Counted from the first letter of the stretch, positions 244 to 63,102 are shown. The stretch is 64,000 nucleotides of DNA from a virus (IMGVR_UViG_3300025405_000009:32001-96000), one strand, 5' to 3'. The notes: a model not told the origin generated them from the sequence alone. A program made the numbers and translations.

Positions 244-1322
244 TATCCAATAAAGAACATCGGTGGGTTAGCATCACCCATACCTGCAGCAGCACCTGTA
301 TAAAGCTGTTGTTCTAATGTGTCCTTTTCTTTTAATCCTTGACTGAGTAAATCATTAAAATTAATCTGTCCACCGCCGAACATGGTTATCCCTGTATATT
401 TACCACGGACGTTACCAACACCTATCTTAGTTAAAGCCAATGCATATTGGTATACCCACTGTTCCTTAATTAAATCACGTAATGGACGTTCAACGTAACA
501 GGACATAACTCCCCAGAAACGACTTCCAGAACCTGGGGTACGTGGAGGTGGATAAAAAACTAAAAGCTGGGTACGAGGATCAAAGACATAAGCACGTCTT
601 ATAGCTAACATTTTTTCACGAACACCTAACCAATTTTTTAATGTATACCAACTAATAAGATCAAATCCGTAATTACCCATTGAGTAACTGAAGTAGGTTT
701 GTTGAGCTAATGTTTGTTCAATTGTAAAAAGAGTATTAACACCATCTGAAGAACCTTCTTCAAAATTTGAAACGTCAACAACCTTTCTATACGCCATTAC
801 ATCATAATCATAACTATTAACGTACTGAGATTGATCATTACTAGAAGGTGTAAAGAGACTGGCAACTGTACTATTAAAATTAATAACACTCAAATAGTTG
901 GTAGTAGTAAGAATTTGATTAGTAAAAATACCTGTAGCGTAAGTTGAAGATAATGTAGGTGATGTGCTAAAGAAAGAACCAGGAATTGAAGAATTACAAG
1001 CGTAAACAGTTGTAGTTGGTTTATCTATTCTACTAAACTCAGGTGTAATACTAAAGAGATCATCAAGTTTTATACCAACACCATCTTTATAAAGATCAGA
1101 ATTAAACACAAGATATTCTTCAGTAAATCCTGCATACTTAGCAAACATCTCACAAGCTATAGAAATGAATTCAAATAATTGATCTTGGTGAATTTCAATA
1201 TTAATCATCGGTGCTCCAAGAGAGCGGGTAATTCTATCACCCAATCTTGAAAAAGAATTTATCTTACTTGATAAATTAGTACTCTGAAAAGCTGAAATTG
1301 GTGTAATGGCTGAACAATCCAT
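243..1322 (-). CDS. gp13: Neck protein, T4 gp13-like
   Basis: RSLGAPMINIEIHQDQL N-terminal motif; C-terminal WVYQYALALTK...GKY..GGGQIN...GLKEK.LE typical of gp13. Confidence 0.85.
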   Translation of the reverse strand: MDCSAITPISAFQSTNLSSKINSFSRLGDRITRSLGAPMINIEIHQDQLFEFISIACEMFAKYAGFTEEYLVFNSDLYKDGVGIKLDDLFSITPEFSRIDKPTTTVYACNSSIPGSFFSTSPTLSSTYATGIFTNQILTTTNYLSVINFNSTVASLFTPSSNDQSQYVNSYDYDVMAYRKVVDVSNFEEGSSDGVNTLFTIEQTLAQQTYFSYSMGNYGFDLISWYTLKNWLGVREKMLAIRRAYVFDPRTQLLVFYPPPRTPGSGSRFWGVMSCYVERPLRDLIKEQWVYQYALALTKIGVGNVRGKYTGITMFGGGQINFNDLLSQGLKEKDTLEQQLYTGAAAGMGDANPPMFFIG

Positions 1323-1328
1323 ATAAAT

Positions 1329-1334
1329 TATTTA
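1329..1334 (-). promoter_or_regulatory. Late (gp55-type) promoter core TAAATA, 6 nt before gp13 ATG
   Basis: Minus strand TTAAATA-atttat-ATG. Confidence 0.7.
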
Positions 1335-1338
1335 AGCA

Positions 1339-3108
1339 TTAGGCAGGTGGTGCTTCACCGCCCGCTGGTGGAGCTTCAGCTCCTGGTGCACCGGCTTCAG
1401 CGCCAGGAGCGGTTTCTGTAGGAGCTGGACCAAAGGCTGGAGGTGTGCCTGTTGGAGCTGCTCCACCGCCTCCACCACCACCTAATTCACCAGGCGCACC
1501 TGCTGCACCACCTGTAAGGGATCCAACCTCACGCCAATCTGGACCATTATTTTCAATCTGAGAAAGTTCCCACATAAGTTCTTTATCCTTACGTAAGAAT
1601 TCTCTATTTGCCATAACATCGGTATCAGACCATCCAAGATATCTCTTTTGTGCGTATGTCTTAGAGACATAATCACTTTGAGTAATTTGATTAAAGTTTT
1701 CAGCCTTAAGTTGAAACTTTTGATTTTCTCTTAATTCGTAGAAATTTGTTGGAACATTAAAATGAAGATCAATATTTGAATCCTTAAGTCTCATTTCTTC
1801 AAATAAACCTTTAAGCTTAATATGAGTTAAGAATCCATTCTTTAATCCTCCTGCAAAACGTTGTTGTTGACGAATAATAAATCTAGCAAACTTTAACTCT
1901 TCACGAAGAATATCTGTACCGTCCTTAAATGTATCATCAGGATTTAATCTATTAGATGGTACTTTAAGAGACTTATAAAGCTTTTTAACGAAGTACATTA
2001 AGTCAGTCAATTCACCAAGGTTAGCTCCACCTGGGAGTTGAGTAACTGAAGTACCTTCTGATCCTTGACGCTTGGCAAACCAAAAGCTATCCAACATGGA
2101 TTGCGGATTAAACTGCTGAACGGTAGCACCTTGATTAGCATCGTAGTTACGCTTAGACCAATAGTTGGTCATTAACTTACGAAGATATGCCTCAGCTTTC
2201 GGGCCGTTCATATTACCGACATCAACGTTAAAGACAAGACGTTCAGGAGCACGTACAAGACGATAGATGACAATAGCGTCCTCGATAAGACTTAACTGAC
2301 GATAAGCTCTACGTGCATTTTCAATAAACGGAAGACGAAGGGTTTTATTTTCATTCCAGATACCAGAATTAATATAAGTTACCTGATTGATATCCATTGG
2401 AATAAGTTCTGTCTTAGCTACCTTACCTGGATTCTTTGCATCAAAAACAGGCTTACGCAAGAGATAACCCTTAGTAATCATATTCTGAACATTTTCAAAA
2501 ATAGGATCAATGACATCCGATGGAATAGTTACAACACCAAGAATACCCTCTTTTGGATATTTCTTATGTATAATGTGTTCCCAATAAATTTCAGCATCAA
2601 CAAGAATTTGACGACAATATTCCCAACCTCTATTTTCAAAGTCAAAGTATCCAATATACTTTTGAAACTCTCTTTTGAGTTTTGTTTTTTGAGAATCAGA
2701 CAAATCTACATCAACAAATCGTAATTTTACAATTTCGCCATGCTCATCCTTGTTAATAAATTCATCACAAATTTCATCCAAAGCATCAGCAACTTCTGAA
2801 AAAGCTGCCATAACTCTATAATCCATTAATCTACGACCCTTATCCGGTTGGATATTGGCGTACATAAAATCATGATAATCTTTATTCTGTAAGACATTAG
2901 CATACTGATCATCAGTTGTAGATATGGAAGACGATACAGACTGACGAACAAGAGCGCCTTGTTTATCTGAACCCTTTTGATAAAAAAGAGAATATTTTGG
3001 ATTTAACTCATTAATTTTATCAGCTGCATTATATGTCTGATAGGGAAGCTTAGATGAAACATACTTCATCAACTCTCTTCCGAATGTACTTTCTCTATTT
3101 TGATCCAT
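1339..3108 (-). CDS. gp20: Portal protein with Gly/Ala/Pro-rich C-terminal tail
   Basis: YRQLSLIEDAIVIYRLVRAPERLVFNVDVGNM, DSFWFAKRQGSEGTSVTQLPGGANLGELTDL, REELKFARFI motifs. Confidence 0.97.
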   Translation of the reverse strand: MDQNRESTFGRELMKYVSSKLPYQTYNAADKINELNPKYSLFYQKGSDKQGALVRQSVSSSISTTDDQYANVLQNKDYHDFMYANIQPDKGRRLMDYRVMAAFSEVADALDEICDEFINKDEHGEIVKLRFVDVDLSDSQKTKLKREFQKYIGYFDFENRGWEYCRQILVDAEIYWEHIIHKKYPKEGILGVVTIPSDVIDPIFENVQNMITKGYLLRKPVFDAKNPGKVAKTELIPMDINQVTYINSGIWNENKTLRLPFIENARRAYRQLSLIEDAIVIYRLVRAPERLVFNVDVGNMNGPKAEAYLRKLMTNYWSKRNYDANQGATVQQFNPQSMLDSFWFAKRQGSEGTSVTQLPGGANLGELTDLMYFVKKLYKSLKVPSNRLNPDDTFKDGTDILREELKFARFIIRQQQRFAGGLKNGFLTHIKLKGLFEEMRLKDSNIDLHFNVPTNFYELRENQKFQLKAENFNQITQSDYVSKTYAQKRYLGWSDTDVMANREFLRKDKELMWELSQIENNGPDWREVGSLTGGAAGAPGELGGGGGGGAAPTGTPPAFGPAPTETAPGAEAGAPGAEAPPAGGEAPPA

Positions 3109-3119
3109 GGCTTATAATT

Positions 3120-3127
3120 TATTTATA
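3120..3127 (-). promoter_or_regulatory. Late promoter TATAAATA, 11 nt before portal ATG
   Basis: Exact T4 late consensus on minus strand. Confidence 0.75.
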
Positions 3128-3133
3128 GATTTT

Positions 3134-5365: not shown

Positions 5366-5366
5366 T

Positions 5367-7277: not shown

Positions 7278-7279
7278 AT

Positions 7280-7753: not shown

Positions 7754-7758
7754 ATTAT

Positions 7759-7766
7759 TATTTATA
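7759..7766 (-). promoter_or_regulatory. Late promoter TATAAATA, 5 nt before gp25 GTG
   Basis: TATAAATA-ataat-GTG; divergent partner CATAAATA at 7801..7808 (+). Confidence 0.75.
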
Positions 7767-7811
7767 GATACTCTATTCCTTTAAAAACCAAACACTGCGG
7801 CATAAATAAAT

Positions 7812-9806: not shown

Positions 9807-9865
9807 ATATACTATAGTATATTATCTAGCAAAGAAATCAACAGGTAATAAGTAATAACACAAAT

Positions 9866-11458: not shown

Positions 11459-11459
11459 T

Positions 11460-12485: not shown

Positions 12486-12488
12486 ATA

Positions 12489-14189: not shown

Positions 14190-14191
14190 TG

Positions 14192-15874: not shown

Positions 15875-15877
15875 AAA

Positions 15878-16246: not shown

Positions 16247-16283
16247 ATTGTAATTATTTACGCCTGTAATAGCGTATTAACAT

Positions 16284-17531: not shown

Positions 17532-17539
17532 ACTATTAT

Positions 17540-19681
17540 TTATCTATTAATTGAATCAAAACGTCTACTAGAGTTACTCGTTGCTGGAGTCAAGAATGCT
17601 GTAGGATTATTATTAACATTCATTACATTTACGTTATTAGAACTACTCTTCATTGCAGCCATACCTTCAGCCATTTGTTTATTAATTTTAACAAGACTGG
17701 CTATCATTTTATTTTGTTCTTGGATAGAACCATGTACATCACCTAAATTTGTATCATTTTCACTTGGTGCAGCTGCTGCAGATTGAGTGCTTGGTACTTC
17801 TGGTGTTACAGGTTGAATATTATTTGTGGGTGCTTCAGGTGTGCTTGGCTGTACATTACCTGCGGAGGTATTATCCGTAGGCGTTTCAGGAGTAGCTGCA
17901 TTAGCTGTAGTATTACCAGTTGATTTAGAAGGTGCAGGTGTTGAGGACGTAGAAGGTGCAGGTTGAGTATCATCTTTTGTATCACCATAACCACTGATAC
18001 CTAACATATCAGCAACTCTTGATCTTATACTAACTCCAAGAATAGACTCTGGAAGCATATTTAAAATTGCCTTTATTAATGCACCGCCAGTTGCTTTAAG
18101 TACACTGGAGAATGTTATAGGTTTACCTGAAGCAGATAAATCACTTATTGCTGTTTTTTCTTGATTGAAGAGTTCAACTAAAAATGATACACCAGGTATT
18201 AATGTGGCAATATCCATAAAAGCTTCTCCATATTTACCCTCACCAATATGAGTTCCCATATCTGTTAAATGTTGAATAAGAGGTATCTTCATAAAAGATT
18301 CCTTTACCCATTTCCAGGCATTACTCATCCAATCTTTATTAGCAGCACCTGCTTTCTCAGATCCACCTGTTTTAGAATCTCTATAAGCACTAAAGACATC
18401 AATTGCAATTGAAAGAGCCGTACCAACAACAGGAATAGCTGTGGCAGCTGCTGACGCAAGATCTAATAGTCCGCCAATAAAATCACCCTTAGCTATACGA
18501 GAGATAGCAAAACCAATACCTATAAGTGAACCAATAATTGGTATTTTTTTAATACCTTTTAATAAAAACCCACCTGCCATTCCAGCAAGTCTTCCTAATA
18601 TTCCCTTACCACCCGCCTTAGCTGCAGTCCCTGCAGCTGCTTTAGTAACACCACCAAAAATACCTTTAAATGAATTAAAAATTTTACCAAAAAGCTTTCC
18701 AGGTAATTCAAGAAGACTCTTACCTAATGATTTTGCCTTCATGCCTAATAATTTACCGACAGCTTCAACTTTTTTTGGATCAAAAAACATTTTAGCAAAA
18801 TTCTTAACTGTAGTTACAAATTTTACAGCACCTTTTTTAATTAAAGAAAGACCAACAGCTAGACCGCCACGTCCAAGAAGTTTTTTTAATCCTTTAAAGG
18901 GACCTGAATCCATTAAGCCGTTAAACAGTAATGCTACACTTCCAATAGCTGCACCTGCTCCAAGAAACATAGTACCTAATGCACCGAGAACGGGTCCAAG
19001 AAGCTTAGCAGCCATTGGAAATATTTCTTTAAGTAGACTATCCTTATCATCTTTTTTATTCTTCTTATCTTTTTTGTCTTTAACAGATCCAGTAATTATT
19101 TCAAGATACGGTTTCCATCTATCAAAAGCTTTTATATTCTCTGTTTCTAAAATATCCTCAAGTGTTACTTTTGTCTTTGGAGGTAGATCAATATTAACTT
19201 CTTCACGAGCAAACGGTGTTTTTGTTTCAATTTTTTTATTAACAGTTTCTTCTTTTTTTGGTTTAATTTTTTCAATAACACTGGTTATTAAACTTTGCTT
19301 AGGTTTTGGTTTATCTGCTTCTTCTACTTTACGGTCACTTTTAACAGGTGTTATTTTTTTAAAAACGCTGTCACTTAAGCTACTCTTTATGGTAGCTGCA
19401 ATATTAGAAATAGGGTTCTTTGATGTCTTTTTATCATCAGTATCTTTCTTATTTTCAGTTTCCTTATTACCCTTATTATCGGCTTTTCTTTTATCTTGAT
19501 TTGACTTACTCTCAGGACCAATTTGATCTACAAGACTATTGGTCTTAGGATTTGATTGAAGAGGAACTTCACCACTAATAATTCCTAAAATTCTATCAAG
19601 AATCTTTGTTTGATTCATTGATACGGCATCAAAATTACCAAATGCTGCCTTTAGATCTGCAATAGAGATAGTACCTTCCAT
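17540..19681 (-). CDS. Probable tape-measure / gp29-like hub protein
   Basis: Lys-rich N-terminus, Gly/Ala hydrophobic helical repeats (KKIPIIGSLIGIGFAISRI..GDFIGGLLD), Pro/Thr-rich tail; tail-module context; TAAATA 6 nt upstream. Confidence 0.55.
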   Translation of the reverse strand: MEGTISIADLKAAFGNFDAVSMNQTKILDRILGIISGEVPLQSNPKTNSLVDQIGPESKSNQDKRKADNKGNKETENKKDTDDKKTSKNPISNIAATIKSSLSDSVFKKITPVKSDRKVEEADKPKPKQSLITSVIEKIKPKKEETVNKKIETKTPFAREEVNIDLPPKTKVTLEDILETENIKAFDRWKPYLEIITGSVKDKKDKKNKKDDKDSLLKEIFPMAAKLLGPVLGALGTMFLGAGAAIGSVALLFNGLMDSGPFKGLKKLLGRGGLAVGLSLIKKGAVKFVTTVKNFAKMFFDPKKVEAVGKLLGMKAKSLGKSLLELPGKLFGKIFNSFKGIFGGVTKAAAGTAAKAGGKGILGRLAGMAGGFLLKGIKKIPIIGSLIGIGFAISRIAKGDFIGGLLDLASAAATAIPVVGTALSIAIDVFSAYRDSKTGGSEKAGAANKDWMSNAWKWVKESFMKIPLIQHLTDMGTHIGEGKYGEAFMDIATLIPGVSFLVELFNQEKTAISDLSASGKPITFSSVLKATGGALIKAILNMLPESILGVSIRSRVADMLGISGYGDTKDDTQPAPSTSSTPAPSKSTGNTTANAATPETPTDNTSAGNVQPSTPEAPTNNIQPVTPEVPSTQSAAAAPSENDTNLGDVHGSIQEQNKMIASLVKINKQMAEGMAAMKSSSNNVNVMNVNNNPTAFLTPATSNSSRRFDSINR

Positions 19682-19703
19682 TGAAGATATTTAATCTCTA
19701 ATG

Positions 19704-22291: not shown

Positions 22292-22315
22292 CTAATTATT
22301 TAGGCTTGTAAGATA

Positions 22316-22939: not shown

Positions 22940-22972
22940 AAGGTGTAATTATTTATTCGTTAGTTGTTCTTT

Positions 22973-25636
22973 TTAGGCTACGATCTCATTGAAGTTAGCA
23001 CTCGTCTGAGTTGCGTAGAAGTTAACTAAGATGAACTCTGCTGTTCTGACCGGCTTGAGGTAGATATCAACAATTAACTCATTTTGATCAATAACTGATG
23101 GTGTATTATTACGCTCATCGCAAACAATCAAGTAATCATACAACCCTTGTGTATTCTTTGCATAATCAAAGATAGGAGTGATTGTATTTACAAGGCGTGT
23201 GCGTGTGAAGAGCGTATTTGGCTCAAATACGAAGAACTGAGCAACATTATTTGTCTGTACTTCAAGAGTCAAGAACAATCTACGAACGTTAATACGATCG
23301 AAAGCACTTGGTTGCTTTAATGATGTCTTTTGACCGTAGATTACATATCCTTCATTAGGGAATGAAGCTACAGGATTAAGACTGATTGTATAAAGCTGAT
23401 CGCGTTCCTTTTGCTTTGGACTATAACCGATGTCAAGAACACCTGTTAAAACACCGCGTGTAAATCCTGCTGGAGCAAACCAAGGCTGGAAGTTACTATC
23501 TGTCTTAGCCATTGCCGAAGCAGCAAAGCCTGAGAATGGAACCCAAACTGGTTGTTGTGAAGCATTGTCATAAACCTGTACAACATTTGCATAAACTGCT
23601 GTATAGCTGTTGTTGAATGAAGCAAACTGGTTGCGTAATGGCCAGTAGAGGTTAAGTGCAAAGTTATTATTAGGATTAGCTAATGTCTTGACACCAGGTG
23701 CTTGACCTGTTACGAAGATATTTGTAAGAGGATCAGCGATGAAAAGGTGATCCTTACGAACATTAGCTGCAAAGTTAATAAAGTTCTGAGCTACAGAATT
23801 GTAGTTAGTTACAATAGGTGCTGGTGTTGTTGGATTTTGTGCCGTAAGATTAGCAACATCCGATCCAAGATATGGAATTGTATCATCAAAATAACCAGAT
23901 GTTGTTGGATTGAATGAGTTAGCGAAGATTGTACCTAATCCAGCTTCAGTTACAATTGATAACGGCCAGATAGATGGATCCTCAAGATAACCTAACATGG
24001 TCTGTACCTTTGTAGGTACACTACCAATTGTCTTAACTGAAAGATCTTGAGCTGAATAATCACCTAATGGATAAAGAGCATCTGTTGATCCAAATACACT
24101 TAAAACACTTCCGTATTGAGCTGATGTAGCGCCTGTACGTGTATAGAATGTATCATTTGATGTTGTAATGAGACCTGAAAGTGCTCCAGAATATCCACCA
24201 GTACCAATTGTATCACTAGCTAAGGGGTACTGACGTGAGTTGTTTAATAAGCGAACATTCTTATTTGGGAAGCCTGAAAGATTGAGCCAACCTGATGAAT
24301 ATTGTTGTGAGATATATGGATTAATGAATACCTGAATATTCTTAGAGTTGTTTTCAACATTTCCAATAAAGAAAGATTTTGGAATACCACCTGTTGAATT
24401 ATTTACTTGACGGTAATAATCAAATGAACCTGTATATCCTTCAGATAGAATATAATCAAGGGAAATTGTATTTGGTGAAAATACTGATTGACGAAGTTTA
24501 AATAAACCAAGAGTAATAGTGTCGTTAAAGTTGGATGGTGATATATCAAAAGTTGGAATTGTTTCCATTACTTGTGAAACACTACCATTTGTACCATAAC
24601 CGACTGCGGCAGATAATGGAAAGTTAAGTCTCTGTGAAGGAACAGTTGTAAAATTACCAGGTGTTACAGCTGACGCGTATGAATTAATAGTAAGAACATT
24701 ATTGATGTCATTAAACGGTGTAGAAGGATAAAGGTTTGAATTATCCATTAAACCAATATAGTTACCTTCAAAACGTGTATTAATGGCATTTTGAGATTGA
24801 TTAAGAATAATAAGACCAGCAGTACCAAATGCTGAGAGAACAGCAGGACTAAAAGTTGTTGTTGGTGGTTGTACTAATACTGAACTTAATGAAGGATTAG
24901 CTGATAAACCAACGTTACCACTATTAGAAACAACATATGAAGTACTTGGATCACTAGCACTAGCAGACCATGTAAATGCAGTACCATTTTGAATAGCAAG
25001 GAATTGCTGTTGAGTTAAACGAACGTGTGTTGGTGCACCAAATAAATACGTACCGTTTGTAATACCGAGATTTACTGATGTAACAGGCACAGTAACTGAT
25101 GTACCTGTAAGAGCTAAGAAAAAGTTAACGGCAGCTGCTGAAAGTGCTGAGTTACTTAAATTAGTTGTTTGTGCTGAAACGGTGTTCTGTAAAACATTAG
25201 GATATGCAGCATTATATGATGCTGAAAGACCTGGAACTATATAATTTGAGGAAAGACCAGCATTATAAGCTGAAAGATTAGCTAAAACACCTGTAGTACT
25301 AGTAATAATAGATACAACAGGATAAACAAGAGCACTATATTGACTTGAGTAATCAAGACCAGCTGCACTACCGTACGGGAGACGGTAAGCGACTACATTA
25401 GCTGGTGATTGAAATACTGCAGTAGCTGTCTGATAGAAGTAACGCTCGGCAGCATTTGTCGGTAAACCAAAAATTTGCTCCCATTCACTAAGAGAACTAA
25501 CTGTAATAGGCTCTGATGAAGGGCCCTTGGCAGCGAAACCAGGGATTAAAATAGTTGTTGGAGGTATGCCAGGTGCTCTTAAAGAAAGATCTACTTCGCT
25601 AATCTGTACGCCCGGGCTTTGTAGTGTAAGTGCCAT
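22973..25636 (-). CDS. gp18: Contractile tail sheath protein with large Ser/Thr/Asn-rich insertion
   Basis: LQSPGVQISEVDLS N-terminus; PWFAPAGFTRG, RDQLY..SLNPV, GQKT..KQPSAFDRINVRRLF, IYLKPVRTAEFI; 887 aa. Confidence 0.95.
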   Translation of the reverse strand: MALTLQSPGVQISEVDLSLRAPGIPPTTILIPGFAAKGPSSEPITVSSLSEWEQIFGLPTNAAERYFYQTATAVFQSPANVVAYRLPYGSAAGLDYSSQYSALVYPVVSIITSTTGVLANLSAYNAGLSSNYIVPGLSASYNAAYPNVLQNTVSAQTTNLSNSALSAAAVNFFLALTGTSVTVPVTSVNLGITNGTYLFGAPTHVRLTQQQFLAIQNGTAFTWSASASDPSTSYVVSNSGNVGLSANPSLSSVLVQPPTTTFSPAVLSAFGTAGLIILNQSQNAINTRFEGNYIGLMDNSNLYPSTPFNDINNVLTINSYASAVTPGNFTTVPSQRLNFPLSAAVGYGTNGSVSQVMETIPTFDISPSNFNDTITLGLFKLRQSVFSPNTISLDYILSEGYTGSFDYYRQVNNSTGGIPKSFFIGNVENNSKNIQVFINPYISQQYSSGWLNLSGFPNKNVRLLNNSRQYPLASDTIGTGGYSGALSGLITTSNDTFYTRTGATSAQYGSVLSVFGSTDALYPLGDYSAQDLSVKTIGSVPTKVQTMLGYLEDPSIWPLSIVTEAGLGTIFANSFNPTTSGYFDDTIPYLGSDVANLTAQNPTTPAPIVTNYNSVAQNFINFAANVRKDHLFIADPLTNIFVTGQAPGVKTLANPNNNFALNLYWPLRNQFASFNNSYTAVYANVVQVYDNASQQPVWVPFSGFAASAMAKTDSNFQPWFAPAGFTRGVLTGVLDIGYSPKQKERDQLYTISLNPVASFPNEGYVIYGQKTSLKQPSAFDRINVRRLFLTLEVQTNNVAQFFVFEPNTLFTRTRLVNTITPIFDYAKNTQGLYDYLIVCDERNNTPSVIDQNELIVDIYLKPVRTAEFILVNFYATQTSANFNEIVA

Positions 25637-25642: not shown

Positions 25643-25650
25643 TATTTATA
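25643..25650 (-). promoter_or_regulatory. Late promoter TATAAATA, 6 nt before sheath ATG
   Basis: TATAAATA-ctttat-ATG. Confidence 0.8.
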
Positions 25651-28033: not shown

Positions 28034-28039
28034 GGAGCA

Positions 28040-28049
28040 TAAATACTTA
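28040..28049. promoter_or_regulatory. Overlapping divergent late promoters: TAAATA (+, 28040..28045) and TAAGTA (-, 28044..28049)
   Basis: The 10-mer TAAATACTTA lies in the 20-nt gap between terL ATG (10 nt away) and the plus-strand ATG (8 nt away). Confidence 0.6.
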
Positions 28050-28053
28050 GTAG

Positions 28054-32099: not shown

Positions 32100-32137
32100 T
32101 ACGATTATTTATAGCGTCGGAGTATAAATAATAGTAT

Positions 32138-33566: not shown

Positions 33567-33602
33567 ACTATGATTATAGTGCCCTCTATTATAAAAACAA
33601 GC

Positions 33603-36935: not shown

Positions 36936-36964
36936 AATATAGTTTGTATTTTTTGTTTAGTCAA
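36936..36964 (-). promoter_or_regulatory. Sigma70-like promoter TTGACT-N17-TATATT, 10 nt before gp32 ATG
   Basis: -35 at 36959..36964, -10 at 36936..36941. Confidence 0.7.
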
Positions 36965-37631: not shown

Positions 37632-37940
37632 CTAAATTGTAACATATCCCTTATCATTATTCAATGGTGAACCTTTTGAATTAAGATATTTCATAATGTA
37701 TTTACTTTTATGTAGGCTTGGATCGAATTTTAAAAAGATTTGAACAGCTGCGTAATCAGTTTCAGCATCACAGTAAACTTTGAATAAATCTCTAAGCGTT
37801 TTGTTTTGCAGAAAAACTAAAAACACATTTGCAAGATTCATTTTCTTTGTATACATCAAAGCTACTAAAGAACAAAATGACAGAAATAAATGCTCTGCCT
37901 CATATTCTGTTATTGTACAATCGTCTGGTAAATCTTTCAT
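37632..37940 (-). CDS. Hypothetical protein (occupies the position of gp33 in T4)
   Basis: 102 aa ORF between helicase and gp59-like gene. Confidence 0.55.
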   Translation of the reverse strand: MKDLPDDCTITEYEAEHLFLSFCSLVALMYTKKMNLANVFLVFLQNKTLRDLFKVYCDAETDYAAVQIFLKFDPSLHKSKYIMKYLNSKGSPLNNDKGYVTI

Positions 37941-43505: not shown

Positions 43506-43513
43506 ATTCAAAT

Positions 43514-43541
43514 ATTATAGAACCATAATTAGTATAATCAA
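43514..43541 (-). promoter_or_regulatory. Sigma70-like promoter TTGATT-N16-TATAAT, 8 nt before uvsX ATG
   Basis: -35 at 43536..43541, -10 at 43514..43519. Confidence 0.65.
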
Positions 43542-43997: not shown

Positions 43998-46589
43998 CTA
44001 TTCAAGTCCTAAAAGATCAAATAAATCTGTCTGTGCAGACATAGCAGGATCTTTTAACTTCCAGTTAACAGCATTATAAAAACGCTCAATTACCTGAAAG
44101 ATAATTTTCTTAAAGATAAATTCATAATCAGGCTCAAAGATATCAGCAAACTCCTTAGGGTAATAGTATTTGTATCCAATTACAGAAATACCATATTTGT
44201 TTGGCTTACGAAGATAAAAATACTTAATTTTATCTCCAGAGGAAATTGCTTCATACTTTCGTTCAATATTAAACTTACTAAGTAAAAGATTGTGATAGTA
44301 TGCTGCTTTAACATGAATAGGCATTCTCTTTACAGTTTTAAAGTCCTTACTATTTGAAGCATATTTCTCGTACCCCTTAACGCCCATTACAGAAGCAATA
44401 TCTTCAACGGGTAACGTTTTAAACGTTTCATAAGTTTCTGTAAAAACTTTATTAGCATCAGTAAGAGATTTCGTAGTAAGCATGGTTTCGATAATACGCT
44501 TTACGTAAGGTTTAATCTGCTTGGGCATTGTTGTTCTTACAACTTCAACACCTGTATATTTAAATTTGTTACATGGAATACCTTCTACGTCAAGAAGATG
44601 AAGGACATAACGTTTCTTTTGTAAGAAGATACCGCTATCGGCAATTGCTTCACGCTTGAACACTAATCGACAGTCAGTTGAATTTAAATCAGCTTTACCC
44701 CATTTTACAATTTCAGTATTGAGATGATCTTCAATATCCTGAACCGCCTTATAGTACTCTGTTGTTACATTGCCGTCCTTATCGTATGTTTCAATACCTT
44801 TAGCTTTAATAAGATGCTTGATAGAAATATAACTACTATCAGTATCATTGTAAATAATTGGTGAATTTTCTTTTAGATATTCTTCTGTTAATCCGGTGTT
44901 ATCTTTAATATAATTTGTTAAAATTTGATTAGATTGTTTAATTACAGCCTGACCAGTAAGAGTAATAGATTCAGCAAGCTCATCATCACCAAGGGGACTA
45001 TGCTTATTGCCAAAGTAACCATAGATAGTATTAATAAGAATCTTAATAGTATGCTGACGTATGTTAAGATTATCAATTTCATTTTGAACTTTCTTATAAT
45101 TAGGATCTGTTTCTTTTATATTAATTGCAGCTTTTTTAGCTTTAGTTAATAGCTTTTTAATCTCTACACGCTTTTTATAATAATAATCAACAGTAATTGG
45201 AATAACCCCTTTCTCTTTTTGTGAGAATAATACATTAGCTTTTGAAATAGCAAGTTGTTCAATTTCAATAAAAGTAGCAAATTTTTTATGAGATAGATTG
45301 TATTCCTTTCCATTTACATGTTTAAATACAACTCCGGTTTCAGTCTTTTCAGTAATCTTGCCTACCTTTGTTTCAGGTGATAGGTTGAGAGTAATCATCA
45401 TGTTAGGATATAGACTGTTTGCATCAAACGAAACAATATGTTCTTGAAAGTCTCTCTGTGGTTCACCTACGTACGCACCTGCATTCTTCTGACCGCCTTC
45501 TTTAATCTCTTTAACAAATGTAGGAATTCGTTGATCCTTAGTGCGTGCACGAATAGAGCAAAGACCTGTAATTACTGAAAGTGATCCTAACGCTCCCTCG
45601 AATGTTGTAAGACCGGCATATGCAATCATTCTTAATAGTTGAATGTATTGTAGTTTCTTTTCTAAGTTAATAAGAAGAGTAACGTCCTGAATATTATACT
45701 CAACAAATAACTCCCAGTTTTCTTCTGATAAGCTTGCAAGATCCGTATCACCATAATCAATCTTGCGCTGATCTAATTCAATTTCACCAATTGCATCGAG
45801 TTTATATGACTCACGCAGTACAGGACAAAAGCGCTGATAAATCTGTAAATAGTCAACACAAGATATACCTTCAATATGCCAACGTGTTTGTTCCCTACCA
45901 AACTTACCCATAAATGTACGTGCACGCATTGATCCAATAGGTGAGAGTCTACGAACCTCATCTTCACCTACGATCTTTGTCATACGATTAATAATGTAAG
46001 GTATATCAAAAAACTCTGAGTTCCATCCCGATAAAATATCAGGATAATCTTTAGAAAAGAAATCTAAAAATTTTATATACAACTCACGCTCAGTCTTACA
46101 ATAGATATATGTTGTTTTATCGTTAGCCTTGGTAAATGGTTTTGTACCCCAGACAGTGTATCTTTCAGTAATAGTATCATAGATAGTAATTACATTAATT
46201 GGATCTTGAGGATTATTAATATCTGGAAATGCATCTGGACTATATGTTTCGATATCAATAAAGTGTACCTTCAGTGGATATTGATTAAATTCATCTTTTT
46301 CATTATCCTGCCAAAATGTATCAATAAGAAATTGTTGTTGTACATTAAAATTATCAAAAACACGAACAATACCATTATCTTTAATATACCGAGAGCGTTC
46401 GGATTGATTTTTAAATCTCTTCTTCTTTAACTTAGTATTAAAGATACTCATTGCATCCGGAGCATTATTTGTCTCAAGATAAATGTATGGCTCGTATGTA
46501 GAGGGTAAGGTAATACGATTACCTTGATCATCCCATGTATAAAGATTCATGGTCTGAGTACGAGGTGAGTACGCTACATTTCTAAACAT
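43998..46589 (-). CDS. gp43: Family B DNA polymerase
   Basis: DIET, SGWNSEFFDIPY, YNIQDV exonuclease motifs; SFDANSLYP, KILINTIYG, YNDTDS, KKRY. Confidence 0.97.
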   Translation of the reverse strand: MFRNVAYSPRTQTMNLYTWDDQGNRITLPSTYEPYIYLETNNAPDAMSIFNTKLKKKRFKNQSERSRYIKDNGIVRVFDNFNVQQQFLIDTFWQDNEKDEFNQYPLKVHFIDIETYSPDAFPDINNPQDPINVITIYDTITERYTVWGTKPFTKANDKTTYIYCKTERELYIKFLDFFSKDYPDILSGWNSEFFDIPYIINRMTKIVGEDEVRRLSPIGSMRARTFMGKFGREQTRWHIEGISCVDYLQIYQRFCPVLRESYKLDAIGEIELDQRKIDYGDTDLASLSEENWELFVEYNIQDVTLLINLEKKLQYIQLLRMIAYAGLTTFEGALGSLSVITGLCSIRARTKDQRIPTFVKEIKEGGQKNAGAYVGEPQRDFQEHIVSFDANSLYPNMMITLNLSPETKVGKITEKTETGVVFKHVNGKEYNLSHKKFATFIEIEQLAISKANVLFSQKEKGVIPITVDYYYKKRVEIKKLLTKAKKAAINIKETDPNYKKVQNEIDNLNIRQHTIKILINTIYGYFGNKHSPLGDDELAESITLTGQAVIKQSNQILTNYIKDNTGLTEEYLKENSPIIYNDTDSSYISIKHLIKAKGIETYDKDGNVTTEYYKAVQDIEDHLNTEIVKWGKADLNSTDCRLVFKREAIADSGIFLQKKRYVLHLLDVEGIPCNKFKYTGVEVVRTTMPKQIKPYVKRIIETMLTTKSLTDANKVFTETYETFKTLPVEDIASVMGVKGYEKYASNSKDFKTVKRMPIHVKAAYYHNLLLSKFNIERKYEAISSGDKIKYFYLRKPNKYGISVIGYKYYYPKEFADIFEPDYEFIFKKIIFQVIERFYNAVNWKLKDPAMSAQTDLFDLLGLE

Positions 46590-46595: not shown

Positions 46596-46624
46596 ATTAT
46601 ACAGGCATCTACCTGACAGGTCAA
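46596..46624 (-). promoter_or_regulatory. Sigma70-like promoter TTGACC-N17-TATAAT, 6 nt before DNA polymerase ATG
   Basis: -35 at 46619..46624, -10 at 46596..46601; spacing predicts +1 at or next to the A of ATG. Confidence 0.8.
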
Positions 46625-49673: not shown

Positions 49674-50734
49674 ACGTTACAAGCTCGCTTATATAGATCG
49701 AGACAGTACGTTATTATCTGATTTTTATTTTCAATATCAAGCACGTTTACAAATTCTTCTATTGTTTTTTGCATATCTACACCTGCAGCTTCATAGTTAT
49801 GATCGTCAACGGTAATAGAGTTATTAAAGAGAGAGTAGTCAACAGAAAATGAAAATGGTTTAAATTCATTCATTTTTTTAATTAATGCCTCAATTCCATC
49901 TTCTTTTGCTTTTTTATCAATAACAAGTTTAATGATACTATTATTAACAAGTTTTTTTACATCCTCACCACTCAGACTTTTATGTGATGTAAGCTCAGTA
50001 AGAGTAATTTTTTTATGCTTTGGTGATAATTTATTTTCGTAAAAAGTATATGTACTGGATGGTATATCTAAGATATAATATCCTTTTGTACTACCTGCGT
50101 CACCAAAATCCATTTCAAAAGGATTACCGACATAAACAATAGTACCATCATTATATTTTCTTTCATCACGTAGATGAAAGTGACCTGTCATAACTAGATC
50201 TGCTTTTTCTAAAAGGTTAGCAGACTTAGCTCCGTGGTCACATGACTTAAAACTATTCATTTTAAAACTTTCTATTTCTAAGTGACCAAACATAATATCT
50301 ACCTCATTAACACTATCAATATTAGCACCCCATGGTAAAAATAATACTTTTTTACCAAACAGAGTAGTTTCAGTAGCGGCATCAATAACGGTAATATTTT
50401 TTCTTCCATTAAGAATTGATAATGAATTTACATCTGATCTATCTTTATAAAAAGCATCATGATTACCAACAATAAAAACCATATTAAAGTTTTTTAATTT
50501 TTGTAAGATCTGTGCAGCAATATGTAACGTAGAAACAGATATATCACTACGGTAATGAAAAAAATCTCCTAAAAAGAAAATATCCGTAATGCCTCTTTTA
50601 GTTAAATCCTCTACAAACCAATCACACCAGGCAAGTGCAGTTTCATGCCATACAATTGAATCTTGATGTACACCAAGATGAAGGTCTGAAAAAATTGCTA
50701 CTTTTGATTGTTTAATGTTTATCTCACTCGTCAT
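49670..50734 (-). CDS. gp47: Recombination nuclease, gp47/SbcD/Mre11-like (start probably ATG 50734)
   Basis: SDLHLG, LGDFF, VGNHD, GHLE, GHFH, YVGNP. Confidence 0.92.
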   Translation of the reverse strand: MTSEINIKQSKVAIFSDLHLGVHQDSIVWHETALAWCDWFVEDLTKRGITDIFFLGDFFHYRSDISVSTLHIAAQILQKLKNFNMVFIVGNHDAFYKDRSDVNSLSILNGRKNITVIDAATETTLFGKKVLFLPWGANIDSVNEVDIMFGHLEIESFKMNSFKSCDHGAKSANLLEKADLVMTGHFHLRDERKYNDGTIVYVGNPFEMDFGDAGSTKGYYILDIPSSTYTFYENKLSPKHKKITLTELTSHKSLSGEDVKKLVNNSIIKLVIDKKAKEDGIEALIKKMNEFKPFSFSVDYSLFNNSITVDDHNYEAAGVDMQKTIEEFVNVLDIENKNQIITYCLDLYKRACNV

Positions 50735-51362
50735 CACTTTCGTCATCTCCTGTTGGTTCAACATAGATGCTACCTGCACATGCATCACTTGCTTCAATCA
50801 TTAATTCTGTATAAACTTTTTCTCTATACTCGTTAATAGCTTCGTGATGCTTCTTTTCTTTTTTAATTCTATTAATAAATGCATGGAAGGCGATAGTTGT
50901 AAAATAAGAGAATGGACTAAATCCTGAATCAATCTTAAATTTTTTATTCTTTAAAGCAGAAAACATTTTAACTATTGCATCACCTACCATGTCTTCTTTA
51001 TAACTATAATTTAAAAAATTAGGTGCATAAGAAAGGCCGTTAGCAATTTTATTTAAACTTTCACCGAGCTTAATTGTAATATTACCTGTATTATAATAGT
51101 TACGAATTTCATCTTCAAATTCTTTACTGTTTACATAATGAACTTTATCTTTTGGTTTAATCTTTTTAGGTGCAGCTTCAGGTACAATTTCTTCTATTAA
51201 TTTAACCGGATCAATTTTAAGTAAACTATCAATTCCAGCATCACCAAAAATTTCTTCTTGTGGTACATCGGATACAACTTCACTAAGCAAAGATATTATC
51301 TTAGGCTTTGCCTTAGTTTTCTTGTATGGTTTTTTCGGTGTAGATAATGGTTTCTTTTTCAT
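50724..51362 (-). CDS. gp55: Late transcription sigma factor
   Basis: HYVNSKEF, IANGLSYAPNF.NYSYKEDMVGDAI, PFSYFTTIAFHAFINRIKKEKK. Confidence 0.92.
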   Translation of the reverse strand: MKKKPLSTPKKPYKKTKAKPKIISLLSEVVSDVPQEEIFGDAGIDSLLKIDPVKLIEEIVPEAAPKKIKPKDKVHYVNSKEFEDEIRNYYNTGNITIKLGESLNKIANGLSYAPNFLNYSYKEDMVGDAIVKMFSALKNKKFKIDSGFSPFSYFTTIAFHAFINRIKKEKKHHEAINEYREKVYTELMIEASDACAGSIYVEPTGDDESDDE

Positions 51363-53152: not shown

Positions 53153-53187
53153 TAAGCTTAAGTATATATTACAGTAACTAAAAATCA

Positions 53188-53472
53188 ATGAGTAATTTTA
53201 ACAAACTATTTGATGTAATTATGGAGGATTTAACGAATTCTGCAGCAACAGCATTTACCTCACCTAGTATACCACCAGCAGGCAGTACAGGTGGTCACTT
53301 TCCAGGGAGTGGTGATCCGGCTGTAGGTGGTTATAATGGCGGTGATGCACGCTGGGCCTTTGGAAAAGAGAACTTTAAAATAGCTAAACCATCAAAACCA
53401 GGTAAGAAAGATAAGAAGCCAAAGGTACCTAAAATTAAAATGCAACGTAGAAATTTGGCTCCATCAATGTAA
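53188..53472 (+). CDS. Small hypothetical protein, CTS-like leader, Lys/Pro-rich tail
   Basis: MSNFNKLFDVIMED; 94 aa. Confidence 0.6.
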   Translation: MSNFNKLFDVIMEDLTNSAATAFTSPSIPPAGSTGGHFPGSGDPAVGGYNGGDARWAFGKENFKIAKPSKPGKKDKKPKVPKIKMQRRNLAPSM

Positions 53473-53919: not shown

Positions 53920-54480
53920 ATGATCCAGGAGATAGCACCAATTCAGTATAATTTTAAAATTATTGACTTTTCTTCTGTAAGTAAAGAAATTTCAAGATTA
54001 ATGTTAGCTGACATGGAAAAATACGGTTTTTTAGAGAATCCAAAATTTTCTAAGGATATTAAACGCCTGCTATTACATCATACAATTCATAGTATTTGTA
54101 ATTTTTTTCTTAAAAATAAAAAAGGTACACCTGTTATTCTATATTTTGAGATTCTTGGATATTTTACTAAATTTCATGCTTTTTACGGTGAAAGTGAAGT
54201 TAATAGGTATTTGCATAACATTATGTTGAAACTTAAAAAAATATTACCGGTACGCATTTATATTGGAAGTATACCATTTGAAGAGTTAAAACAAGCAGTT
54301 GATAAAAACACAGGAGAAGGTATAGATTTTCTTAAAACTATAGAAATTCACCTTACACGATATGACTTTAGTAAATATACATTTAGTCGTATCAAACAAT
54401 ATGTAGCACGTTATAAATTAACTTTTTTAAGTAAAGATTACTTTAACCAATTAAAAACAAAAAACCTTCTATTTACATAA
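53920..54480 (+). CDS. Hypothetical protein; weak resemblance to the N-terminus of T4 RNase H
   Basis: IIDFSS...RLLLHHTIHSI...VILYFE; start uncertain (53854 or 53920). Confidence 0.5.
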   Translation: MIQEIAPIQYNFKIIDFSSVSKEISRLMLADMEKYGFLENPKFSKDIKRLLLHHTIHSICNFFLKNKKGTPVILYFEILGYFTKFHAFYGESEVNRYLHNIMLKLKKILPVRIYIGSIPFEELKQAVDKNTGEGIDFLKTIEIHLTRYDFSKYTFSRIKQYVARYKLTFLSKDYFNQLKTKNLLFT

Positions 54481-54488
54481 ATAATTGT

Positions 54489-58272: not shown

Positions 58273-58911
58273 TTAACGTCTCTTTTTACTTTCAAGAACT
58301 CTAACACATTCCAAAAGAACTTTTTCAATATTTTCTTTTGACTCATTACGTACTGTGCGCTTAATTTGATTAACAATACTACTACCGCCATTGTTAATAC
58401 TATCAATAAAATCTTGAGCTGAACCTTCTTCAATTTCTTCAGCATGTCCTTCAACTTCATCTCTATATTGCTCATAATCTTTATAAGCAAATACAGCGTT
58501 TAAATCATCAAATGATTGTGTAATTTTAGCTGCAATCCATGGTGATAATTCTTCTTCATCCTTAACAAGCTCGTGTAACATGGCAGCCATTTTAGCAATT
58601 CTAAAACATTGCTGTTTAGCCATATAACCATTTGTTTCATGTGAGTTACGATGATCTTCAATACCTTCATTATCATACCCGCTATGTACTGGTTTATCAG
58701 CAAATACCATATCATCTTCTTCACTTGCTTCACATGGACATTTTGGCTTTGTTTGCTTACACTTTAAGCATACTCTCATAGGAGCTTGATTAATAGCACC
58801 ATTAGATGAAGCGGCCGTTGTATGATCGAGAACTGATCCCGTTTCATCAGATTCTCTATAGACGCGTTGATTATAAATTTCATTGAGGAGGTTAAAGTCC
58901 TTGGCAAACAT
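58273..58911 (-). CDS. Hypothetical late protein with CxxC...CPC and an MAK.Q...WIAAKIT helical segment (start ATG 58911)
   Basis: TAAATA 58919..58924, 7 nt upstream; MFAKDFNLLNEIY leader. Confidence 0.7.
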   Translation of the reverse strand: MFAKDFNLLNEIYNQRVYRESDETGSVLDHTTAASSNGAINQAPMRVCLKCKQTKPKCPCEASEEDDMVFADKPVHSGYDNEGIEDHRNSHETNGYMAKQQCFRIAKMAAMLHELVKDEEELSPWIAAKITQSFDDLNAVFAYKDYEQYRDEVEGHAEEIEEGSAQDFIDSINNGGSSIVNQIKRTVRNESKENIEKVLLECVRVLESKKRR

Positions 58912-58950
58912 ATACAATTATTTAGTCTATATGTGCATAAATAATTGTAT
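58912..58950. repeat. 13-bp perfect inverted repeat formed by two divergent late promoters plus leaders
   Basis: ATACAATTATTTA (58912..58924) / TAAATAATTGTAT (58938..58950). Confidence 0.8.
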
Positions 58951-59260
58951 GTCATGTCTATTTGAATCACGTTTCATAGAGATCTTAAATGAAAAGAAAG
59001 CTCCAAGTTTATCTATTAAGCGTGGAGAAAAATTACCTGTTAATCGTGGAGGTGGCTTAACAGCCAAGGGTAGAGCAAAATATAACCGCGCTACCGGATC
59101 ACACCTTAAAGCTCCAGTAACTGGTAAGGCTAAAAAAGGATCTAAAGCTTCAAAACGTAGAAAGAGTTTTTGTGCAAGAAGTAGCGCTTGGATTCCAGCT
59201 GGAGGTTGTGCTGGTAAGAAGACTCGTGGATGCGCAGCAAGAAGGAGATGGAAATGTTAA
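58949..59260 (+). CDS. Small very basic Cys-containing protein (GGLTAKGRAKYN...RRKSFCAR type); start revised to 58949
   Basis: TAAATA 5 nt upstream; Lys/Arg-rich; ends RRRWKC. Confidence 0.7.
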   Translation: MSCLFESRFIEILNEKKAPSLSIKRGEKLPVNRGGGLTAKGRAKYNRATGSHLKAPVTGKAKKGSKASKRRKSFCARSSAWIPAGGCAGKKTRGCAARRRWKC

Positions 59261-59651: not shown

Positions 59652-59655
59652 TATT

Positions 59656-60731: not shown

Positions 60732-60737
60732 ATACAT

Positions 60738-60765
60738 ATTATACTATCTATTTTCTTACTATCAA
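60738..60765 (-). promoter_or_regulatory. Sigma70-like promoter TTGATA-N16-TATAAT, 6 nt before folE ATG
   Basis: -35 at 60760..60765, -10 at 60738..60743; back-to-back with the late TAAATA at 60769..60774 (+). Confidence 0.7.
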
Positions 60766-60780
60766 CAATAAATATTAATA

Positions 60781-62034: not shown

Positions 62035-62041
62035 CTTTATT

Positions 62042-62221
62042 ATGCCATACAATATACGTAAAGTCAAGGGTGGATATAAAGTTTGTAAAAAAATCGGAAA
62101 TAAGAAGTGTATGCCTGGAAAATCAGTAACAAGAGCTAAAGCTAAGGCTCGCATTTATGCTGCTCATATGAATGAAAATTTTAATGATACTGTAAATCGT
62201 ATTTTAAAGACTTTAATTTAG
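62042..62221 (+). CDS. Small basic protein (MPYNIRKVKGGYKV...KAKARIYAAHMNE)
   Basis: 59 aa from ATG 62042, 7 nt after the upstream stop. Confidence 0.6.
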   Translation: MPYNIRKVKGGYKVCKKIGNKKCMPGKSVTRAKAKARIYAAHMNENFNDTVNRILKTLI

Positions 62222-62330
62222 AGAGTTGCTTTTTTTGTCTAGTGATTAAGTAATATAGAATATATAGAAAATACTGAGCATATCGAAGAAGAGGAGCCAA
62301 AGACAACTTCTATATTTTTTTCAATTTAAG

Positions 62331-62359
62331 TTGATTTACTAAAATATATCAGTTATAAT
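62331..62359 (+). promoter_or_regulatory. Sigma70-like promoter TTGATT-N17-TATAAT, 8 nt before queD ATG
   Basis: -35 at 62331..62336, -10 at 62354..62359. Confidence 0.8.
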
Positions 62360-62367
62360 AAAAATAT

Positions 62368-63102
62368 ATGAGTAATTATCAGTCAACTAAGCTTTTAGAG
62401 TTAGGTTCTTGTGCATTTAGACAATGGAGAGCTACATCACATTGTTCTAAGATTCACGGTTATCAATTACTTGCTAAATTTTATTTTGCTGCTTCATCAT
62501 TAGATGAAAAAAACTGGGTAGTAGATTTTGCTAGTCTTAAAACATTAAAATCTATTCTTCAACATCAATTTGATCATACATTATGTGTAGCTCAAGATGA
62601 TCCTTTATTAGAAACATTTCAATTGCTACATTCTCAAGGAGGTTGTGATCTTCGTATTATGGATTCTGTAGGTATTGAAAAAACTGCTGAGTTTTGTTTT
62701 AATGCTGCAACAAATTGGTTAAAAGAGAATTATGGTGAACGTTGTTGGGTAGAGAAAGTAGAAGTATTTGAGCATGAAGCTAATTCTGCCATTTATGTAA
62801 AACCAAATGTAATTACTCATTCATTTCAAATGCCAACATCATACGGTGGTGTAACACTTTTAAATGAAACAAAGGCAGTTAGTACAGTATCAACACCTGA
62901 TGTCTCAATTCCTGCAACAACTGTAACAGCTGAGATTCCTTCTACAACAGAAACAAATGTTCAGCCAACAGAAACACCAACTTCTATTGAAATTGCTCTA
63001 CTTCCTGATTTGCCTGCAGGACCAACAGGCGTAACTGTTGGTAGAGGTCAGGTAACCCAGGGATGGTCAAATCCATTTGGCGGTACAAGTTGGGGTGTCT
63101 AA
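62368..63102 (+). CDS. queD: 6-carboxytetrahydropterin synthase (QueD/PTPS-like) with ~100-aa Thr/Pro-rich C-terminal extension
   Basis: CAFRQW...HCSKIHGY, WVVDFASLK.LK..L...FDH, GIEKTAE, VEVFEHEANSAIY. Confidence 0.9.
   Translation: MSNYQSTKLLELGSCAFRQWRATSHCSKIHGYQLLAKFYFAASSLDEKNWVVDFASLKTLKSILQHQFDHTLCVAQDDPLLETFQLLHSQGGCDLRIMDSVGIEKTAEFCFNAATNWLKENYGERCWVEKVEVFEHEANSAIYVKPNVITHSFQMPTSYGGVTLLNETKAVSTVSTPDVSIPATTVTAEIPSTTETNVQPTETPTSIEIALLPDLPAGPTGVTVGRGQVTQGWSNPFGGTSWGV

Follow-up and report, generated by a model that had tools for sequence, protein, structure and literature searches.

Can a T4-like phage express its genes from mRNAs that have no leaders? Phage T4, whose late mRNAs carry leaders with a Shine-Dalgarno (SD) sequence, is the textbook model for the timing of phage gene expression. 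The question is raised by a stretch of 64,000 nucleotides (nt) of viral DNA, IMGVR_UViG_3300025405_000009:32001-96000 (the window), in which an earlier note had seen promoters only a few nucleotides before the start codons of many genes, with no SD sequence in between. It had proposed that much of both the early and the late program is expressed from leaderless or near-leaderless mRNAs. The window represents bases 32001 to 96000 of an IMG/VR virus record of 198,847 bp (about 91% complete, 34% GC). It belongs to a T4-like myophage, as identified by its genes for portal, baseplate wedge, sheath, tube, large terminase, DNA polymerase, gp32, UvsX, UvsY, primase, and a gp55-type late sigma factor. 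The phage is deeply divergent, its DNA polymerase and portal being about 30% identical to those of any cultured phage in the collection. No close cultured relative turned up, and megablast with 20 kb gave no match.

To this aim, open reading frames (ORFs) were called mechanically by taking the longest ORF and removing overlaps greedily. This gave 268 ORFs covering 95% of the 199-kb genome, 72 of them in the window, and the gap between promoter motif and start codon was measured for each. Unless the window is named, counts refer to the whole genome. TAAATA, the core of the T4-type late box, was found before no longest-ORF start at a gap of 4 nt and before 16, 18, 9, 5, 11, 5, 2, and 4 starts at gaps of 5 to 12 nt, respectively (70 genes in total), compared to about 0.1 per offset per 268 at 6,508 non-start ATGs. 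Similarly, sigma70-type promoters (TTGnnn-N16-18-TAnnnT) were absent at a gap of 5 nt, preceded 22 longest-ORF starts at a gap of 6 nt and 5, 5, and 4 at gaps of 7 to 9 nt, against 0.5 to 1.1 per offset at non-start ATGs. Depending on whether longest-ORF starts or alternative starts were used, such promoters ended 6 to 11 nt before 39 or 60 starts, mostly at exactly 6 nt. Seventeen of these 60 starts lie in the first 10 kb of the genome (G000:1-9000, outside the window), where the copies are not independent and inflate the count at gap 6. With in-frame alternative starts allowed, 87 genes were late-proximal and 60 sigma70-proximal, together 55% of the 268, and the window held 26 late and 17 sigma70-type promoter-proximal starts among its 72 ORFs.

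We then compared these counts with a control in which each gene's own 45-nt upstream stretch was shuffled 500 times, using longest-ORF starts only. Late boxes at gaps of 5 to 7 nt numbered 44, compared to a shuffle mean of 3.1 (maximum, 9), and 73 compared to 7.6 at gaps of 5 to 12 nt, while sigma70-type promoters at gaps of 6 to 8 nt numbered 32 compared to 1.5. The window alone gave 13 versus 0.8, 21 versus 2.0 (maximum, 6 in 500 shuffles), and 8 versus 0.5 for the same three ranges. In this spacing histogram, which the earlier note had put forward as its own refuting test, the enrichment was thus 10- to 20-fold, and no shuffle reached the observed count. The promoter-at-start layout is real and far above chance. 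Every gap that the note had listed was recovered, and the counts in the window exceed its list. Most of these gaps are given in Table 1, namely those of the late boxes of the adaptor, portal, gp25-like, sheath, tube, and 415-amino-acid (aa) genes and of the starts at 54489, 58949, 32099, 60781, and 32138, and those of the sigma70-type promoters of DNA polymerase, gene 36976-37629, UvsX, UvsY, and gp32. In addition, the late-box gap is 6 nt at the 713-aa gene and 5 nt at 29172 and 33785, and the sigma70-type gap is 7 nt at the clamp candidate and at 31659 and 8 nt at 43960.

Where would transcription start in this layout? In the T4 P23 open complex, whose structure was solved by cryo-electron microscopy, adenines stand at -12, -9, and -8 (PMC7892883), which places TATAAATA at -13 to -6. 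The late box occupies the place of the bacterial -10 element. The sigma70 hexamer reaches to -7 and the late box to -6, and each has its conserved T at -7. The smallest gaps, 6 nt for the sigma70 type and 5 nt for the late type, are exactly one base apart. This is the difference that a shared T at -7 would produce, and the first base of the start codon would therefore coincide with the predicted +1 in both classes. As the earlier note had proposed, the measured gaps place the predicted +1 of both classes directly on the start codon or no more than about 6 nt from it.

The start codons themselves are in agreement with this geometry. Among the 87 late-class starts, 71 are ATG, 16 are GTG, and none is TTG. 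GTG is used more often at the exact spacing (16 of 83, compared to 5 of 185 elsewhere; p = 1e-5), and late boxes with longer gaps have a purine at the predicted +1 in 37 of 45 cases. The first 40 nt of the predicted transcripts are weakly folded (-2.1 kcal/mol, compared to -4.0 kcal/mol for internal coding 40-mers; p = 3e-15). N termini are conserved from residue 1, and the start codons are therefore not miscalled. GTG starts, which in the window are at 7753, 22291, 29172, 32099, 33566, 54489, and 60781, occur almost exclusively where the G would be the predicted +1. The stop codon TAA of the upstream gene was also seen to double as the TAA of the next gene's late box in 8 of 60 same-strand cases, at 17537-17544 and at seven other sites of the genome.

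The two promoter types belong to different classes of genes. The late boxes stand before the genes for adaptor, wedge, tube, sheath, and portal, while sigma70-type promoters, with the consensus cTTGA, a spacer of 16 to 17 nt, and TAtaaT, precede those for dUTPase, primase, gp32, UvsX, UvsY, DNA polymerase, and QueD. The gp55-like protein encoded in the window (Table 1) presumably recognizes the TAAATA boxes. In several divergent gene pairs, the start codons are 20 to 38 nt apart with two promoters in between, leaving no room for longer leaders. The most compact example, at 28034..28053, separates the terminase start (28033, minus strand) from the start of a 341-aa gene (28054, plus strand); its two boxes are near-palindromic, reading TAAATA on one strand and TAAGTA on the other. 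The 415-aa gene is only 8 nt from the upstream gene 17540-19681, and its late box overlaps the end of that gene. As to gene 36976-37629, the label folE that the earlier note had given it was not confirmed by Pfam.

Table 1. Promoters, spacers, and genes of the window that bear on the promoter-to-start layout
Feature	Coordinates	Strand	Relation to start codon; annotation
Late box CTTAAATA	1329..1336	-	6 nt before ATG of gp13-like head-tail adaptor (243-1322); phrog_211
Late box TATAAATA	3120..3127	-	11 nt before portal ATG (1339-3108); phrog_213, E 2e-106
Two large virion genes, 743 and 636 aa	3134..7277	-	no box, no SD; tightly coupled class
Late box TATAAATA	7759..7766	-	5 nt before GTG of gp25-like baseplate wedge gene (7280-7753); phrog_261, E 7e-27
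Late box CATAAATA	7801..7808	+	6 nt before ATG 7815; divergent from box 7759..7766 in a 61-nt spacer
Late box GATAAATA	17537..17544	-	5 nt before ATG of 415-aa gene (16284-17531)
Late box CCTAAATA	22297..22304	-	5 nt before GTG of gene 21431-22291; weak tail-tube-like match to phrog_45
Late box AATAAATA	22950..22957	-	10 nt before tail tube ATG (22316-22939); phrog_45, E 1.5e-26
Tail sheath gene, gp18-like	22973..25636	-	phrog_23, E 3e-67, aligned from residue 1
Late box TATAAATA	25643..25650	-	6 nt before sheath ATG 25636
Divergent spacer, 20 nt (whole)	28034..28053	.	overlapping divergent late boxes CATAAATA (gap 8) and ACTAAGTA (gap 10)
Divergent spacer, 38 nt	32100..32137	.	back-to-back TATAAATA boxes, 6 nt before GTG 32099 and 7 nt before ATG 32138
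TTGTTT-N16-TATAAT	33573..33600	-	6 nt before GTG of primase (32535-33566); phrog_47
Candidate gp45-like sliding clamp, 243 aa	34775..35506	-	protein-language-model lead to gp45-slide_C clusters only, 0.95-0.96
TTGACT-N17-TATATT	36936..36964	-	10 nt before ATG of gp32 single-strand-binding protein (36059-36925); phrog_224
TTGAAT-N17-TACAAT	37636..37664	-	6 nt before ATG of gene 36976-37629
TTGATT with TATAAT/TAATAT	43512..43541	-	8/6 nt before UvsX ATG 43505; phrog_97
DNA polymerase gene, gp43-like	43998..46589	-	phrog_262, E 2e-187
TTGACC-N17-TATAAT	46596..46624	-	6 nt before DNA polymerase ATG 46589
gp55-like late sigma factor gene	50724..51362	-	phrog_234 "late sigma transcription factor", E 1e-24; weak Sigma70_r2, E 1e-4
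TTGATT-N16-TATACT	53161..53188	-	8 nt before UvsY ATG 53152; PF11056 UvsY
Late box CATAAATA	54476..54483	+	5 nt before GTG 54489
Late box CATAAATA	58936..58943	+	5 nt before ATG 58949
Sigma70-type promoter	60738-60765		ends 6 nt before ATG 60731
Late box AATAAATA	60767..60774	+	6 nt before GTG 60781; divergent from sigma70-type promoter 60738-60765
TTGATT-N17-TATAAT	62331..62359	+	8 nt before QueD-like ATG 62368; phrog_2389

We next asked whether the starts carry SD sequences. The mean anti-SD duplex energy was -0.61 kcal/mol at gene starts, compared to -1.26 kcal/mol at random sites, and GGAG, GAGG, and AGGA occurred before starts at or below background throughout the genome, so that both the energy scan and the motif counts bear out the absence of SD described earlier. 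G is depleted at positions -12 to -6, and the 12 nt upstream of the start are A/T rich and G poor in all genes. No gene class showed SD enrichment, including the tightly coupled genes without a promoter. The ORF 58883-59260 begins, as the longest ORF, with a TTG followed by AGGAGG (58883-58894); its real start is likely the ATG at 58949, 5 nt after a late box, and the AGGAGG, about 58 nt upstream of this ATG, is not an SD site.

Among the 121 genes without a proximal promoter, 65 overlap the preceding same-strand gene or sit no more than 5 nt from it, and many of the remaining ones have a -10-like hexamer 6 to 9 nt upstream without a good -35 element. The two large virion genes of Table 1 illustrate the coupled class, the 636-aa gene starting 2 nt after the stop codon of gene 7280-7753 and the 743-aa gene 1 nt after that of the 636-aa gene. 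The architecture can thus be summed up as a promoter on the start codon or tight coupling to the gene upstream. Since the coupled genes lack SD sequences too, translation in this phage would be independent of SD altogether.

To determine whether the layout is conserved, we turned to related uncultured phages. In IMG/VR relatives whose sheath is 39 to 76% identical, TAA(A/G)TA stood 5 to 7 nt before the sheath ATG in about 67 of 69 orthologs, while the flanks varied (rows of the ortholog table counted as gaps of 8 to 10 nt were offset by one codon, and their true gaps are 5 to 7 nt). For DNA polymerase (45 to 93% identity), 52 of 66 distinct upstream regions had a -10 hexamer ending at a distance of exactly 6 nt from the start codon, most of them with TTGAnn 16 to 17 nt further upstream. 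The start codon in these 66 was GTG in 41 and ATG in 25, and the N terminus (M/V)(F/Y)RN was conserved. Finally, among 949 distinct starts in 1.3 Mb of related loci, the late box was found 0 times at gap 4, 128 times at gap 5, and 58 times at gap 6, and the sigma70-type promoter 107 times at gap 6; SD sequences were absent from these loci. Because the spacing is kept across relatives of 39 to 93% protein identity, the layout is evidently a trait of the clade and under selection.

How does this compare with known systems? Three cultured phages were analyzed with the same ORF caller. In T4, late boxes lay 12 to 29 nt before the starts, with none at 5 to 8 nt, and the anti-SD energy was -4.07 kcal/mol, compared to -1.33 kcal/mol at random sites. 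The contrast with T4 drawn in the earlier note therefore holds, the boxes here lying at 5 to 12 nt with no SD enrichment. In cyanophage S-PM2, the gap was mostly 19 to 40 nt (anti-SD, -2.59 compared to -1.57 kcal/mol). In HTVC008M, a cultured T4-like myophage of SAR11 (Pelagibacter), ten genes had TAAATA exactly 5 nt before ATG. However, its other genes use strong SD sequences (-4.07 compared to -1.19 kcal/mol) and it has no clear sigma70-type class at gap 6, so that the layout is partial there and genome-wide here.

Thermus is reported to have many leaderless mRNAs. In its lytic myophages YS40 and Lalka27a, primer extension showed that the majority of transcripts, from more than one temporal class, are leaderless and begin with the initiator A or G (bioRxiv 10.64898/2026.04.20.719267). 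Unlike the phage studied here, these are not of the T4 type, TAGGGT serves as their late -10 element, and gp55 has not been reported for them; their leaderless transcripts are proven by experiment, while those proposed here are predicted. The leaderless mRNAs of Actinobacteria and Deinococcus likewise lack SD and begin with an AUG or GUG, the +1 itself, that follows a -10 hexamer at a distance of about 6 nt (PMC3898074, PMC4007540). However, these are cellular genomes of high GC content whose leadered genes keep using SD, whereas here no gene class has one and a phage sigma factor would drive half of the cases. T4 late transcription itself, which depends on the gp55 sigma factor, the gp33 coactivator, and the gp45 clamp (PMC2988020, PMC7892883), shares with our phage the same box, TATAAATA, the lack of a -35 element, the position before virion genes, and gp55. 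It differs in its SD-bearing leaders, and in our phage the search for gp33 gave no match and gp45 is a lead only. T4-type late promoters are textbook knowledge and leaderless phage programs are proven (YS40, Lalka27a), but a full-text literature search did not yield any description of leaderless late mRNAs from T4-like phages, and the combination of both was not found.

From the geometry, its enrichment, the split by gene class, the conservation, the lack of SD, and the gp55 homolog, all of them directly observed, we infer that both temporal promoter classes are positioned to let RNA polymerase begin at the start codon itself or no more than about 6 nt upstream, so that the mRNAs are leaderless or near-leaderless; we consider this likely. 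Early and replication genes would be read from host-sigma70-type promoters (TTGAnn-N16/17-TATAAT), mostly ending 6 nt before ATG or GTG, and virion genes from T4-type nnTAAATA boxes ending 5 to 12 nt before the start and recognized by the gp55-like sigma factor. The resulting mRNAs would have AUG or GUG at their 5' end, or else a leader in which no ribosome-binding site could fit, and their translation would be initiated in a leaderless or SD-independent manner. Translational coupling or SD-independent internal initiation would serve the genes without a promoter, which overlap or abut the preceding gene. This reading is well supported, with the start sites, the way in which the mRNAs are translated, and the host all being inferred from the genome sequence.

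Several points weigh against it. The start sites of this phage and its relatives are predicted from promoter geometry alone, and that geometry was worked out with E. coli RNA polymerase carrying sigma70 or T4 gp55, from which the polymerase of the host may differ. About 45% of the late boxes lie at gaps of 7 to 12 nt and would give leaders of 2 to 7 nt, that is, near-leaderless rather than leaderless mRNAs. Furthermore, promoters further upstream could transcribe most genes as internal cistrons as well, and leaderless forms need not be the main templates. The ORF caller is crude, and chance may account for about 6 of the 21 sigma70-type calls made at internal starts. As for the late machinery, phmmer with T4 gp33 against all ORFs of at least 40 aa gave a best E value of 0.33, a search in which gp33, being small and fast evolving, may have been missed, and the lead for gp45 is weak: the 243-aa candidate has no Pfam or PHROG match, and no PF09116 match was found in the genome. 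Finally, two genomes of the candidate host family showed no sign of frequent leaderless genes and no clear TAnnnT peak at gap 6.

The alternative that fares best is that the layout is a by-product of compaction. The promoters would be real and, no leader being needed, would have collapsed against the start codons as the genome shrank, but most protein would come from read-through transcripts with internal starts, found SD independently at A/U-rich unstructured sites, as is usual in SD-scarce bacteria, and leaderless translation would be minor. SD-independent internal initiation or coupling must operate anyway, as the genes without a promoter have no SD, and the start regions of these genes are also weakly folded; the A/T-rich, G-poor 12 nt upstream of all genes fit as well. 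Read-through is to be expected, too, since late genes form same-strand arrays with spacers of 8 to 40 nt and terminator-like sites are not enriched (12 in positions 1 to 20000 of the window, compared to 9.3 ± 3.1 expected, and none found separates late genes). However, the modes at 5 and 6 nt, conserved over 39 to 93% identity, together with the GTG codons enriched at the exact spacing, point to selection on a 5'-terminal start codon and not on shortness only, and where units diverge, the first genes lack any promoter further upstream from which they could be read. We therefore regard this alternative as rather unlikely.

Much less probable still is that TAAATA and TATAAT act in the RNA as a translation signal, an A/U-rich element bound by the ribosome or by S1 in a non-SD manner, with transcription starting further upstream. 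The motif is indeed A/U rich and occupies the part of the mRNA that a ribosome would touch, and A-rich upstream signals are used by SD-scarce bacteria (PMC10783764). Against this, the motifs are split cleanly by temporal gene class, the late motif is the T4 gp55 box in a genome that encodes a gp55 homolog, and the sigma70-type motif is paired with TTGAnn 16 to 17 nt upstream, which would be meaningless in RNA. In addition, the coupled genes without a promoter have neither motif, and in divergent pairs the upstream space is taken by the neighbor's own promoter. Chance or composition, with A/T-rich hexamers falling near starts by accident in a genome of 34% GC (generic sigma70-like matches overall number 88, compared to 95 in shuffles) or with starts being miscalled, was rejected and has a negligible probability in view of the position-specific enrichment over composition-matched shuffles, the lack of the pattern in T4 and S-PM2 at similar GC, the layout conserved in orthologs, and the N termini aligning from residue 1.

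The near-leaderless program proposed in the earlier note is thus upheld in its promoter positions, its lack of SD, and its contrast with T4, and extended by the conservation in the sheath, the DNA polymerase, and 1.3 Mb of related loci, while two of its corollaries are not supported. The mRNAs had been thought to be often monocistronic. Given the tiny spacers and the lack of terminators, nested polycistronic transcripts that share their 3' ends, each with a leaderless first cistron, are more probable. The phage had also been suggested to keep translating while SD-led initiation of the host is suppressed; its own coupled genes have no SD either, and the hints on the host point to SD-scarce lineages. 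The further proposals of the note, that the layout accounts for the shuffled gene order and that the host is particularly efficient at leaderless initiation, are conjectural.

Which host could translate such mRNAs? An SD-scarce bacterium with canonical promoters would fit best. The lack of SD enrichment fits Bacteroidota-type SD-independent initiation, but it also holds in two genomes of Coraliomargaritaceae, a family of Verrucomicrobiota (G001 and G005; 53% and 39% GC), in a crude test at longest-ORF starts of 200 kb each; common to both phyla, it cannot discriminate between them. The Bacteroidota -7 box TAnnTTTG, whose partner is a TTTG at -33, was found 4 times within 60 nt upstream of the 268 genes, compared to 11.5 expected from its genome-wide density. 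The phage encodes a 60-aa bS21 protein (PF01165, 50.7 bits; G000:167046-167228, corresponding to L197:11046-11228, outside the window), whose ATG lies 2 nt after the upstream stop codon and whose next gene then has TAAATA-N5-ATG. Scanned against one genome per GTDB species, it gave 80 best matches that are all from Verrucomicrobiota, mostly Opitutales, at 45 to 57% identity; the scan was seeded on shared 8-residue words, and the link to Verrucomicrobiota is therefore only a hint. Few or no cultured phages are known for Opitutales.

The two Coraliomargaritaceae genomes suggest that Opitutales are SD scarce like Akkermansia, and some Verrucomicrobia are listed among SD-scarce organisms (PMC10783764). 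These are weak hints at an SD-poor member of the Verrucomicrobiota as the host. TATAAT-N6-ATG in five Verrucomicrobiota genomes did not exceed a reversed-pattern control. Comparing 20 kb of the window with 301 Opitutales genomes for CRISPR spacers gave only matches of 23 to 30 nt, some in a low-complexity Gly/Pro-coding stretch; the two loci inspected hold no arrays, and no host link resulted. Freshwater myophages encoding bS21 have been assigned to Bacteroidetes (Chen et al. 2022; PMC9723584). Our phage resembles these large phages in its bS21 gene but differs in its canonical -35/-10 early promoters in place of the Bacteroidota TAnnTTTG type and in a bS21 nearest, in the GTDB scan, to Verrucomicrobiota (Opitutales); promoter-to-start spacing is not mentioned in the abstract of that paper.

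Taken together, a wider proposal can be made, which we put forward tentatively as possible rather than likely. A whole T4-like clade would have dispensed with 5' untranslated regions and ribosome-binding sites, more than half of its genes, both early and late ones, having mRNAs with AUG or even GUG at the 5' end and the others depending on tight coupling, in an SD-scarce host with canonical promoters, possibly of the Verrucomicrobiota (Opitutales), whose ribosomes the phage bS21 may tune toward such mRNAs. If true for a large and environmentally common clade, the T4 late machinery would be able to drive a leaderless program, leaderless or SD-free initiation could sustain massive synthesis of virion proteins, and GUG would function as the first codon of an mRNA outside Actinobacteria, Deinococcus-Thermus, and their phages. 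In uncultured T4-like genomes, start codons could be called and genes assigned to temporal classes by their promoter-to-start spacing, a lack of SD would give a clue to host range, and the promoter-plus-start units could be used as compact expression cassettes for hosts that ignore SD.

A few minor observations remain. Searching for RNA-derived contigs that end at a predicted +1, with the tube protein, gave long DNA contigs only. The phage, which occurs in lakes, was recorded in 63 sample blocks, among them JGI 3300006125, ENA ERZ27272013, and Logan SRR5260655. The 227-aa protein encoded at 40009-40692 has only weak PHROG matches to glutamine amidotransferase, and tblastn of this ORF and of the 415-aa ORF (16284-17531) against the phage collection gave no match.

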